Part shown: positions 10,443 to 16,419 of the stretch, in pieces
How positions within the stretch are numbered: position 1 is the first letter of the stretch
Layout of the letters: every line of letters starts with the position of its first letter
Notes under the pieces: generated by a model
What the model was told of the DNA's origin: nothing
Databases searched by the model: none
The model's input: the letters and a program-made list of their open reading frames with translations, nothing else
Virus record (IMG/VR): IMGVR_UViG_3300048592_001370
Origin: an uncultured virus (IMG/VR IMGVR_UViG_3300048592_001370)
Lineage: Duplodnaviria; Heunggongvirae; Uroviricota; Caudoviricetes
Reading direction: 5' to 3' (one strand)
Length of the DNA: 20,000 nucleotides
Translations under genes and position numbers: made by a program

Positions 10443-11438
10443 TCAGGACTTGGCAAAACCAAAGGCTGGACGGTCTGGCGATTTGTCAGACGAAGGCTTT
10501 GTCCGGAACTGGTCCAGTCTTTCGATAGCCTTCGGTATCGGCATGTTGAAGCAACGTGTCAAGATGATCAACTCACGCAAATGAGCGATTGAGTAACCCT
10601 CGCTCAGCTTCACAAGCTGTGCCAGCTCCAATTCGGAGTAACTCTTCTCCTTGTGTTCAAGGAATGTTTTGCGAGCCTCCGGTGACGGCATGCCGATGTA
10701 GCGAATGGTATCGAAACGGCTGGGACGATCAACAAAACGTCTGTCGAGGCGTTCCGGGTAGTTTGTTGTAGCGACGTAGACGATGTTGTCCACTTGTGAC
10801 TCACCATCCAGCAGAGCGAGGTACTCGTTCTCGCCGTACCTCTCGATCAGGGCATCGATGTCTTCCATGATGGCAATGACAGGTCTCTCAGATTCCACCT
10901 TGCGAAGCATCTGGAGACAGGCTGCCGCACGAGAGGGATGGTCGATAAACACAGCTATCCCATTGCACGTATCGACGATGAGTTTGATTAGGAGTTGTAC
11001 GGTACTGGTCTTTCCGGAGCCCGGTGGCCCCCAGAGCATGATGCCGCGCTTGTGGAGGAAACCCCGGTGTTTGAACGCTTCCTTCATATTGCGGAAGTCG
11101 TCGATCTCTTGCAGGATCTCTTCGCTGACAGTATCTGGAAGAGTGATGAGTTCATCTGTCTTGTTGATCTGCTTGTCGAGATAGGCACCAATGTTTGGAC
11201 TCTCGCCACAGCGGTACAAACCAGGAGGGAGGCTGTCGTAGGTCTGCTTCGACGGCCAGAAAATGTTGTCGGATGCCGACCACATGCGAGTGCCATCAAC
11301 GGAACCAAGATTGAAACTGCTAGTCGTCTCTACAACCGCCTGTGGCTGACACTCGTCTAGAGCGCGTTCTTTATTCCCAGCACTTCGTTTGGCTGTCCCA
11401 ACTTTGTCAAAGAAGCTGGGTTCGGCTTGATCGCTCAT
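10443..11438 (-). CDS. AAA+ ATPase (single domain)
   Basis: Walker A GPPGSGKT, Walker B IMEDID, sensor-1 TTN, arginine finger DRPSRFD. Start trimmed to ATG 11438, downstream of the terminator hairpin. Confidence 0.9.
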   Translation of the reverse strand: MSDQAEPSFFDKVGTAKRSAGNKERALDECQPQAVVETTSSFNLGSVDGTRMWSASDNIFWPSKQTYDSLPPGLYRCGESPNIGAYLDKQINKTDELITLPDTVSEEILQEIDDFRNMKEAFKHRGFLHKRGIMLWGPPGSGKTSTVQLLIKLIVDTCNGIAVFIDHPSRAAACLQMLRKVESERPVIAIMEDIDALIERYGENEYLALLDGESQVDNIVYVATTNYPERLDRRFVDRPSRFDTIRYIGMPSPEARKTFLEHKEKSYSELELAQLVKLSEGYSIAHLRELIILTRCFNMPIPKAIERLDQFRTKPSSDKSPDRPAFGFAKS

Positions 11439-11465
11439 CAATATCACCAATAAAGGTAGAGTCCA

Positions 11466-11508
11466 GAACAACGAAGACAAACCCCGGTGGAAATCCCACC
11501 GGGGTTTG
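11466..11508 (-). terminator. Intrinsic terminator-like hairpin
   Basis: 13-bp perfect stem CAAACCCCGGTGG/CCACCGGGGTTTG (11478-11490 / 11496-11508) followed by an interrupted U-rich tail. Confidence 0.7.
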
Positions 11509-11840
11509 CACAACGATCTCTTTGCTGGTATGCACCAGCCGGATTTTGAGAGGGGATTGGCTCACATCGTAGTCTCCTTCGGCCGGCACCTCGGTCCGGT
11601 ACCGAACAATTCGTTAATCATCCCGTATGTGCAACCGTCGCAAGTCTCCGCGGGTCCAACTCATGAGACTTGCCATGAACAATTTGTGTTTCAAGCCCTG
11701 GCATTAGATAATAGTCTAACGCGCTCTTGTCGCGGTTCTGGAAACGGTGGTCCGAGAGAGGCAGTTCGTACAACGTATAGTGAACGTGCCAGTCAGGGAT
11801 GCTCTTTACCTTTACCCAGACGACGCAACCGGGATCTAAG
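11478..11840 (-). ncRNA. Candidate ~360-nt structured ncRNA of unknown family
   Basis: Gap without a convincing CDS, flanked by TATAAT (11842-11847) and a terminator. Contains many nested helices whose G-U pairs work only on the minus strand. Confidence 0.5.
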
Positions 11841-11871
11841 CATTATAACGTTCCGAGTATGGATTACGTGG

Positions 11872-12798
11872 TCACTCGAATGGTCTTCGCATGATACTTA
11901 GCTCCTTCCCGGTCTTTTTGGCTCCTGGTATCCACGCCGGGGATTCGTGATACCAGAAGAGGATTGTCAGTGCCGCGGCCGAAATGAACTCGGGCAACGA
12001 CGCCAACTCTTGCACTACTTTGCCTTCCCGGATCGTTCCTGTCTTGAAATACTTGGGCAAGTACTCCAATGCCAAGGCCCGATTGCGCGAAAGTCCATAA
12101 TTCGGGAATTGCTGGTTCTGCACCCGCCCCGCAGAGAACATCAAGTTTTCCAAGTTCCGTCCGCAGAAGTCTTGCACGTAGCGGTGGATCGTTCCCGCGA
12201 AGCCGGTGTCGAACAGGATGTCACCGTCGTTGGTCTCAACATTGATCAAGGCCTCGTACAAGTGAACAGATCCGGCAACCATCCGGGACACACAGGGTTC
12301 GTAGACATAGGGTACGGCATGTTTTTCACACAGGATAGCCCAAGGCCACACATCCCGTCCCAACAGTATTACTTTACAACCTGGACGCAGTCGGGAACGC
12401 AAGTCACGGACTGAATTCTTCACCATGGTGTGGATCAGATTGAAACGCCCGTATCCTTTCTGCGACGGCTGTACTACTATTGGATGGCTGCAGATGGAGT
12501 ATTCTTGTAGGGGGTAGTCATGTGCCGTCCTGAGAGCGAACATGTCCTGTACCAAGGAAGGCAGTTGCCAGAATAAAGGACAGGGCCGAGCATTCGGGAA
12601 CCTTGGTAGAGACCACGACAGCAGGGCGCTCTTTATCAGACCCAATTCCGGGTACCGACAGTGCTTGGCTATCCGGTGATTAGACGAGGCCGGCGGCAAT
12701 TGTTCGATCTTGCGGATAGAAGGAAGCACGAAATCTTCGACGTGCTTCCTTATCCAGGACGACTCAGGCGAGCTTGAAGCGTTTGTGTTTTGTTCCAT
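11872..12798 (-). CDS. Hypothetical protein with LLGRD / DTGFAGTI motifs (PRTase-like fold, tentative)
   Basis: VILLGRD...VSR...LFDTGFAGTIH resembles the FLARD..SR..DxGxxGTIQ domain. Confidence 0.65.
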   Translation of the reverse strand: MEQNTNASSSPESSWIRKHVEDFVLPSIRKIEQLPPASSNHRIAKHCRYPELGLIKSALLSWSLPRFPNARPCPLFWQLPSLVQDMFALRTAHDYPLQEYSICSHPIVVQPSQKGYGRFNLIHTMVKNSVRDLRSRLRPGCKVILLGRDVWPWAILCEKHAVPYVYEPCVSRMVAGSVHLYEALINVETNDGDILFDTGFAGTIHRYVQDFCGRNLENLMFSAGRVQNQQFPNYGLSRNRALALEYLPKYFKTGTIREGKVVQELASLPEFISAAALTILFWYHESPAWIPGAKKTGKELSIMRRPFE

Positions 12799-13096
12799 TT
12801 GAGATACTCGCAAACTTGCTGCCGAATGTCACTTTCAAGAACTTCGCCCCTTGTACCCGATAGAAGATGTGCTGCCGGGTTACGTAGATACGGGGCTGCG
12901 GATGCTCCGTCGTTCCTTTTGCGATATTCTGCTGGTACGCGGCAAGGTCTTCAGGAAGGGAGTTAAGCATACGCTTGCAACGCCGAAGGATCTTATCGCT
13001 ACTGGCCGAAGTAGCAACGACCGTCTCGAAATGAGACTCTTCGGCGAAGCAAGGGTTGCTGGAATAGCGGGAAGAAGGGAGTTGAATTTTTGTCAT
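12764..13096 (-). CDS. Hypothetical protein (MTKIQLP...)
   Basis: GAGGG RBS before ATG 13096. Confidence 0.65.
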   Translation of the reverse strand: MTKIQLPSSRYSSNPCFAEESHFETVVATSASSDKILRRCKRMLNSLPEDLAAYQQNIAKGTTEHPQPRIYVTRQHIFYRVQGAKFLKVTFGSKFASISNGTKHKRFKLA

Positions 13097-13280: not shown

Positions 13281-13302
13281 GATTCCTCCTAAGTTGAAAG
13301 GA

Positions 13303-13672
13303 CCGGCCTTATTTGATAACAAGGAAAGGCCGGCGGAAACCCCGTCGGAGCCGAAGCTCTAAGGATTGCGCCTAGCTACCCTTATCAGGCAGCGAGGCGT
13401 GTCTCCCCGAAATAGCTGTCATCGTTGGCAACTATTGGTTTTGCGCTATTTACGTCAGGCGCCTGACGTGCCGTAACTCCAGGTACTCATTACGCCGTCG
13501 AAGCCATGTCACCCCCAACTGAACAGCCTAACGGCTCTCATAGCAATAGCGCCCACTCGCGGTTACCGCCGAGTTACAACGCTAGGCCGTTCAGGTGGAG
13601 GTGGGCGGAATCGAACCGCCGTCCGACATACCTTTCGCTTTCGTTTTTCGAGCTTTCGCTCACACGACAATT
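13303..13672 (-). ncRNA. ssrA: Circularly permuted (two-piece) tmRNA; tag ANDDSYFGETRLAA
   Basis: Acceptor piece (..GGACGGCGGTTCGATTCCGCCCACCTCCACC, ends 13594) precedes the coding piece (GGGGGTGACATGGCTTCGAC.., starts 13516). Acceptor stem GGGGGUG/CACCUCC has G3-U70. PK1 is ACGTCAG-GCGC-CTGACGT..GCGC. Tag ORF 13429..13385 ends TGA TAA. A 3' hairpin lies at 13303-13333; outer boundaries are approximate. Confidence 0.93.
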
Positions 13673-13674
13673 CT

Positions 13675-13751
13675 TGGTCGGGGTGGTCAGACTCGAACTG
13701 ACGACCCCCTGCTCCCAAAGCAGGTGCGCTACCAGGCTGCGCTACACCCCG
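13675..13751 (-). tRNA. tRNA-Pro(UGG)
   Basis: CGGGGTGTAGCGCAGCCTGGTAGCGCA-CCTGC-TT-TGG-GA-GCAGG-GGGTCGTCAGTTCGAGTCTGACCACCCCGACCA; 77 nt, encoded CCA. Confidence 0.97.
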
Positions 13752-15818: not shown

Positions 15819-16419
15819 TGGTGGGCCTTGTTGGATTCGAACCAACGACCAAGGAATTCGTACCACTATAGTTTTCACTACCTAGAGGCGTAGCCAGCCA
15901 GTAGTTTCCTACGTGCCTCGTGTCTGTCTAGTTTGTGGTCTGGGCTATGCCTTTACCTTGGGTGAATCGTTGCCTTGACTTGAAAGTACAAGCAACAGTT
16001 TATAGTCATCCACCTTTAGGTATCTGCCGTCTAGTCTCTACACCTTCCTAACCGATAAGCAGAACTCAACTTACACTGAACCGGATTTACGGCATAGTTA
16101 GGCTTGGCTCGGTCGTTAGCATATTTAATGGTTAGGATTTATGATTGCCGGTTTTAAACTTCAACTGGTATATCACCTAGCCAAACAGCCTTCGCCGACT
16201 TTGACAGAATTCACCACAATCTACGGTTGCCAAATTACATGGCAACGGCTAGGCCCTGTCGAGATTGTTTTACCGCCTTTCGGTTGTGCCGTTACGCCGG
16301 CCTACTTAGGTTCGCCTTTCGGTATCCACCTGTTCGGTTTCCGACTACCAGCACATTTTTCGGTGGTGCACAACTTGCGTTAATGAGTTCCCTGCTCTAA
16401 CCAACTGAGCTAAAGGCCC
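15819..16419 (-). tRNA. tRNA with CAU anticodon (probably tRNA-Ile2), exons 16419..16383 and 15858..15819, interrupted by a group I intron
   Basis: Joined exons give GGGCCTTTAGCTCAGTTGGTTAGAGCA-GGGAA-CT-CAT|AA-TTCCT-TGGTCGTTGGTTCGAATCCAACAAGGCCCACCA (77 nt). Confidence 0.93.
15859..16382 (-). ncRNA. Group I self-splicing intron (IC3, Azoarcus tRNA-Ile-like), 524 nt, no homing endonuclease ORF
   Basis: 5' splice site follows U (CAU|), IGS GUG, terminal G at 15859. Core motifs: GUCAAAGUCGGCGAA, CCGAGCCAAGC, GAAGGUGUAGAGACUAGACGGCAGA, AAGGCAUAGCCCAG. Confidence 0.93.

Follow-up and report, generated by a model that had tools for sequence, protein, structure and literature searches.

The minus-strand gap at 11439–11871 is, in a reading to which we give about even confidence, a transcribed non-coding spacer carrying a leaky terminator. 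It lies in the window, the whole 20,000-nt stretch of DNA analysed here, and spans 433 nt by the ORF list and the sequence, between a 313-aa gene of unassigned function upstream and an AAA ATPase gene downstream, both on the minus strand. No Rfam family, tRNA, tmRNA or protein family was matched in it, and it is annotated as a putative transcribed spacer or leader. A sequence-only reading had placed here a multi-branched non-coding RNA between a TATAAT box and a terminator. Both the gap and the terminator hairpin (11509–11477) are real; no support was obtained for the multi-branched RNA, and a novel structured RNA is quite unlikely.

Setting of the gap and neighbouring RNA genes

Almost all open reading frames of the window are on the minus strand, abutting or overlapping one another (ORF list), and the earlier description of a 430-nt gap in a tightly packed genome proved accurate. 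The upstream gene (11872–12813, −) has its stop at 11872. Its protein has 34 unannotated relatives of about 240–390 aa with the invariant motifs GRDVW, FDTGF.G, EY.PKY and ESPAW, and returned no Pfam, PHROG or confident Atlas match. The downstream gene (10443–11438, −) encodes a classical-clade AAA ATPase of 331 aa (Pfam PF00004, E 1.3e-13), and its start at ATG 11438 agrees with the nearly invariant N-termini of 25 aligned homologues. The protein as called by the gene caller (P0001, 280 aa) covers 85% of the 331-aa frame and probably starts ~51 codons late, the homologues backing ATG 11438 (affected part 11285–11438). The longest contig given for this called protein has 207,582 bases, and the window looks like a section of a large phage. 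Among the window's PHROG matches are a radical-SAM protein, a phosphohydrolase and phage ATPase families.

RNA genes of the window comprise tRNA-Thr, tRNA-Pro and a permuted tmRNA (Rfam, ARAGORN) together with an intron-split tRNA; the tmRNA and tRNA genes lie 1.4–1.9 kb from the gap. The two-piece tmRNA (13294–13751, −), with the tag peptide ANDDSYFGETRLAA and tRNA-Pro directly after it, stands ~1.9 kb upstream of the ATPase gene. Permuted tmRNAs are typical of Alphaproteobacteria, and the genomes with ATPase homologues are largely of that class (Undibacter, Rhodomicrobiaceae, Parvibaculum, Bradyrhizobium), which together give a hint at the host. In a second large gap (15819–16419, −), a tRNA gene is split by a 524-nt insert in its anticodon loop, as ARAGORN detected with introns allowed; at default settings neither Rfam nor ARAGORN picked it up. 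Intron_gpI aligns with the insert at 15928–16252; its 31.6 bits (E 4.1e-06) fall short of the gathering score, which is 50. ARAGORN assigns the split gene as tRNA-Arg(ACG). In group I introns the upstream exon ends in U and the intron in G, and junctions placed by this rule would instead give the anticodon CAU.

An intron or lost exon in the gap was considered and ruled out. The frame of the upstream gene continues into the gap as a 60-codon frame; the upstream protein has a complete C-terminus (alignment of 18), ending where 17 aligned relatives end, 10–35 residues after the conserved ESPAW motif, and the N-terminus of the ATPase is the usual one. Intron_gpI had no match in 11300–12000 at E ≤ 10, a permissive setting at which the same model detects the tRNA intron at 15928–16252.

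Open frames in the gap and related strains

Related strains recovered from public runs keep the gap colinear at about 86–92% identity. Contigs of run X8 cover 11499–11743 with 33 differences in 245 nt and one gap, and 11721–11873 with 12 differences in 153 nt and two gaps; contigs of run X1 cover 11353–11584 with 20 differences and 11716–11988 with two. The X8 strain carries 1-nt deletions at 11561, 11778 and 11781. No indels are listed for any run in the covered pieces of the flanking genes (10443–11438 and 11872–12813), and the deletions in the gap thus speak for non-coding DNA. Colinearity itself may reflect constraint. Run X8 contains two strains, with 6 differences in 204 nt and 93 in 790 nt of the ATPase gene, respectively, and a contig of the more distant one ceases to align at 11458, leaving 44 letters beyond this point without a match. 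The X8 pieces of the gap have low depth, like that of the nearer strain, which could mean that the gap diverges more quickly than the ATPase gene. An argument from purifying selection on the gap was dropped as ambiguous because of this two-strain mixture.

An SD-like GAAGGAGA lies at 11580–11573 (−), followed by an ATG (11567–11565) directly before a TGA and by a GTG (11565–11563) that overlaps this ATG, the whole arrangement occupying 11562–11580. The GTG, which GAAGGAGA precedes by 7–8 nt, opens a 52-codon frame to 11407 that has both a start codon and a ribosome-binding site, and most ATG-started genes of the window carry a similar SD. A good SD with an ATG or GTG at 11580–11563 counts against a spacer. 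A 60-codon version of the frame (11589–11407, −) is a called gene on the window's own contig (P0121). We nevertheless hold a small protein gene in the gap, with the 52-codon frame as the best candidate and a 51-codon frame (11773–11618, −) as the other, to be unlikely. P0121 had no match other than itself in a collection of 5.8 billion proteins, even though contigs of close relatives (those of P0002 and P0122) are in that collection. The 60- and 52-codon frames run through the perfect 13-bp hairpin and overlap the ATPase start by 32 nt, and the deletion at 11561 falls in codon 2 of the 52-codon frame. By the protein search and this deletion, P0121 is probably no gene. The 51-codon frame contains none of the three deletions of the relative, but it begins with TTG and lacks an SD. 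Codon-usage scores of the small minus-strand frames, at 0.05–0.13, do not fall clearly short of the scores of real genes, in a window in which this score fails to separate real genes from antisense frames.

On the plus strand, one frame is free of stops over the whole gap (11431–11901), which has a chance probability of 0.003–0.012 and counts against a spacer. Its codons are in register with the antisense of the frame used by the upstream gene, and antisense frames of more than 120 codons are common in the window. A plus-strand gene of 131 codons (11506–11901), with the palindrome at its 5' side acting as operator in a divergent promoter region, would account for both the missing stops and the perfect palindrome; we regard it as extremely improbable. 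An exhaustive search of 1.84 billion representatives returned one match for the 131-codon ORF, a 618-aa protein aligned over eight short stretches (E 5.5e-7), and this match is repeat-like and defines no family. The codon-usage score of the frame is ~0, no SD precedes its in-frame ATG 11530 (by eye), the three deletions of the X8 strain would break it as they break the 52-codon frame, and the window has almost all of its genes on the other strand.

Neither Pfam nor PHROG matched any open frame of the gap. A decayed gene was also ruled out: 18 stop-free segments were compared with 191 fetched loci, and the best E value, 0.013, is at chance level. The claim that the gap is non-coding is thus reasonably supported, in that no frame has a relative or family match and three 1-nt deletions occur in a relative.

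Folding, candidate promoter and terminator-like hairpin

The nine helices of the proposed RNA and its terminator are complementary where they had been placed. Checked pair by pair, CAUCCC/GGGAUG, GGCAC..UGCC, GUUC/GAAC, ACCGU/ACGGU and GCAAGUCUC/GAGACUUGC consist of standard pairs throughout. The remaining four were read from the sequence: CGGUACC/GGUGCCG (11604–11598/11590–11584), GCUGGU/ACCAGC (11539–11534/11529–11524, present also in the MFE fold), UUAGA/UCUAA and CGCG/CGCG. Of all these helices, the terminator hairpin alone goes beyond chance. Measured as folding energy against dinucleotide shuffles, the stretch 11478–11847 has z = −2.41 with the terminator, and its 338-nt body without it (11510–11847, −) has z = −0.24 (−0.22 on repeat; −0.30 on the plus strand), so the whole score of the longer stretch is due to the terminator. 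Six coding stretches of equal length gave z from −2.06 to +1.49, a range that includes the body of the gap, and the tmRNA of the window gave −4.97. The test has limited power: the core of the window's real group I intron reaches −1.78, or −0.77 when its tRNA is included, and at z −0.2 a genuinely structured RNA could thus be overlooked. For the helices that close the fold, CAUCCC/GGGAUG and ACCGU/ACGGU, the ensemble pair probability is 0.00. Once the terminator is removed, the elaborate fold is no better than chance.

Local hairpins of the gap have ensemble pair probabilities of 0.95–1.00. One (11760–11790, −) pairs GGCACGUUC with GAACUGCC around a 14-nt loop at 0.98–1.00; another (11640–11673, −) pairs GCAAGUCUC with GAGACUUGC in nine perfect pairs around a 16-nt loop at 0.95–0.96, and by a rough estimate ~0.05 perfect 9-bp hairpins of this kind are expected by chance in 433 nt. 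In the spacer reading, the helices other than the terminator are ordinary local hairpins expected of any sequence of such composition, which do not add up to a defined multi-branched RNA.

Known families gave no alternative identity. At gathering score, Rfam 15 has three matches in the window and none in the gap, including none to a cis-regulatory model. At E ≤ 10 on 701 nt around the gap, three weak hits (E 0.31–3.2) aligned mainly on the terminator hairpin: rnk_pseudo with 21.9 bits (gathering 55) and P15 with 14.8 and 13.5 bits (gathering 70). These are terminator-driven noise. ARAGORN, also with introns and tmRNA allowed, detected no tRNA or tmRNA in the gap. Repeats or iterons beyond chance-level short matches were not found in it, nor was a second copy of the gap within the window.

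As 5' boundary of the RNA, a TATAAT box had been proposed. The hexamer is present (11847–11842, −), but it has no −35 partner: hexamers 16–18 nt upstream match TTGACA at none to two of six positions (by eye), and a promoter scan returned no sigma-70-like site in 11200–12100. In the 20 kb, TATAAT has two occurrences on the minus strand and none on the plus strand, with ~5 per strand expected from length alone. A stand-alone structured phage RNA of 330–370 nt, transcribed from a promoter of its own near 11847 and ending at the terminator, is a quite unlikely reading, which lacks a promoter match and a Rfam match as well as excess stability (z ~−0.2 without the terminator) and has closing helices of probability 0.00; DNA like it was found neither in 50,697 phage records nor in 191 loci or the rest of the window. 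In its favour are the boundary elements, with TATAAT at the 5' end and a terminator at the 3' end, the stable local hairpins, the RNA genes nearby (permuted tmRNA, two tRNAs and the intron-split tRNA) and the low power of the z-test, as gauged by the intron control. The region is also colinear in relatives, and two of the three deletions there (11778 and 11781) fall in or at the edge of the loop of the 11760–11790 hairpin.

The terminator-like hairpin itself was borne out. By repeat search, the hairpin has 13-nt perfect arms (11478–11490 and 11496–11508) 5 nt apart; the terminator scan counts 15 pairs including flanking ones, nine of them G-C, and a loop of 3. Its stem is the longest among the 28 terminator-like sites of the window (mean 19.7 in shuffles), which makes it the strongest such site in the 20 kb. 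With the G+C-rich stem and short loop of intrinsic terminators, the hairpin is, as far as its sequence tells, intrinsic-terminator-like. Its tail is U-rich and passes the rule of the scan (at least five T in eight), but is interrupted by G and C (UUUG UCUUCGUUGUU) and forms no clean U-run, so termination at this site may be weak or absent.

Past the stop of the 313-aa gene, 360 nt precede the hairpin, and 38 nt separate its end from the ATPase start codon. Since 38 nt are too short for a promoter and a leader, and no promoter site was found, the ATPase message most likely crosses the hairpin rather than starting within these 38 nt. An RNA library, X4, contains a 215-nt contig of a relative that spans the hairpin and the ATPase start (11541–11330), with 15 differences in 212 nt. 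This contig is compatible with read-through, or with DNA carry-over in the library; the public-run data are assembled contigs, in which RNA ends do not show. Parts of the stretch are without cover in X4.

A long leader with a terminator shortly before the start codon is the usual layout of a transcription attenuator, and the earlier suggestion of a leader controlling the AAA ATPase stands as to this geometry. A riboswitch-like or protein-bound leader that decides whether the terminator forms could also draw on the failure to find a separate ATPase promoter. It is nonetheless quite improbable, with no Rfam cis-regulatory match at threshold and no convincing antiterminator: a 16/22 match to the 3' arm and a 6-nt CCACCG ~240 nt upstream are both estimated to be at chance level. 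Nor is the layout shared by the ATPase family. The distance to the nearest upstream ORF (counted if at least 80 codons long) is at most 150 nt in 65 of the 77 viral loci in which it was measured, out of 80, which argues that a leader is not a trait of the family.

Homologues, interpretation and known systems

The ATPase belongs to a large family, with 1903 relatives at E ≤ 0.001 and AFG2, Cdc48 and p97 D2 domains and YjoB as best solved relatives; the gap found no counterpart among the loci of such homologues. Blastn detected no DNA like it in 50,697 phage records, nor did any occur in the 191 fetched loci. In IMG/VR, neither flanking protein as query returned a locus; the ATPase alignment returned 80 loci with no DNA similarity to the gap and no shared neighbour, and the upstream-protein alignment four loci, none with the ATPase within 3 kb. 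Two DNA patterns of the gap returned two and five IMG/VR loci, matching the pattern itself only. In JGI metagenomes, the ATPase alignment returned 95 relatives with a best identity of 48% and no syntenic locus, the patterns being generic AAA motifs. In GTDB genomes, a single protein query returned nothing, and the alignment 20 loci without synteny or DNA similarity. P0002 for the ATPase (82%) and P0122 for the upstream protein (53%) are the closest relatives. A contig of 7629 bp is listed for each, and by this equal length it seems to be the only relative keeping both genes together.

Twelve ATPase loci have a larger upstream space, 11 of which are among 12 loci scanned with Rfam. In three of these 12, tmRNA or tRNA genes lie directly upstream of the ATPase homologue: a tmRNA in L038 (1744–2470), a tmRNA in L077 (1897–2248) and a cluster of three tRNAs in L050 (2048–2293). 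Nine large upstream gaps were inspected by eye (L066 left out) and appear to contain small ORFs or to be too short to compare. A recurrent link of this ATPase family with phage translation RNAs may exist; its position behind tmRNA or tRNA genes in three of 12 scanned loci hints at such a link with phage-encoded RNAs.

As a transcribed spacer, the gap would serve as 3' trailer to the 313-aa gene and as 5' leader to the AAA ATPase gene, read in the direction of both, and the hairpin, acting as a leaky intrinsic terminator, would be its sole working element. The hairpin would stop part of the upstream transcription, and the rest would enter the ATPase gene and the ~10 kb of packed minus-strand genes behind it. 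Transcripts ending at the hairpin would carry a stable 3' stem-loop, and the leaky terminator would fix the proportion between transcription upstream and downstream of it. Little or no structural role would fall to the remaining 330 nt. Against this reading, it gives no role to the 360 nt between stop and terminator, a length that is long for a packed genome.

If the spacer reading is true, the element amounts to common punctuation of phage transcription, of use mainly for annotation: a unit boundary would stand before the AAA ATPase block, and the gene call P0121 would probably be spurious. The wider claim, of an undescribed 330–370-nt phage RNA formed by a string of hairpins and a terminator in a narrow clade of ~200-kb sludge or wastewater phages, acting in trans or as a sensing leader of the ATPase, we consider rather unlikely. 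Large phages carry many unexplained RNA genes, and covariation among relatives would raise the importance of the element. An explanation outside all those set out here is very improbable. Transcript-mapping studies of Pseudomonas phages (PMC10914365, PMC9163698, PMC8244752) and survey literature on huge phages (PMC7162821) are available as context.

Among known systems, large structured RNAs offer a partial likeness. GOLLD and ROOL are large phage-associated structured RNAs represented in Rfam, and the gap shares with them a phage context near tRNA genes and a length of several hundred nucleotides; unlike them, it matches no Rfam 15 family at gathering score, and at E ≤ 10 the sole hits are terminator noise. 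The tRNA region of phage T4 reportedly contains two extra small stable RNAs of unassigned function. Like these, the gap is non-coding and lies in a large phage at 1.4–1.9 kb from tmRNA and tRNA genes, but it does not adjoin them and bears no sign of a discrete stable RNA or structure. Attenuation leaders, such as riboswitches, T-boxes and protein-dependent leaders, resemble the gap in having a long leader with a terminator right before the gene; the gap differs from them in having no aptamer or T-box in Rfam, no detected antiterminator, no excess stability and no conservation with the ATPase family. Relative to intrinsic terminators between phage genes, the interrupted tail is atypical, and the placement, 360 nt past a stop and 38 nt before a start, is more attenuator-like than that of an operon end, with termination here predicted from the hairpin. 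The likeness to these terminators lies in a G+C-rich stem of 13–15 pairs, a short loop, a U-rich tail and co-directional flanking genes.
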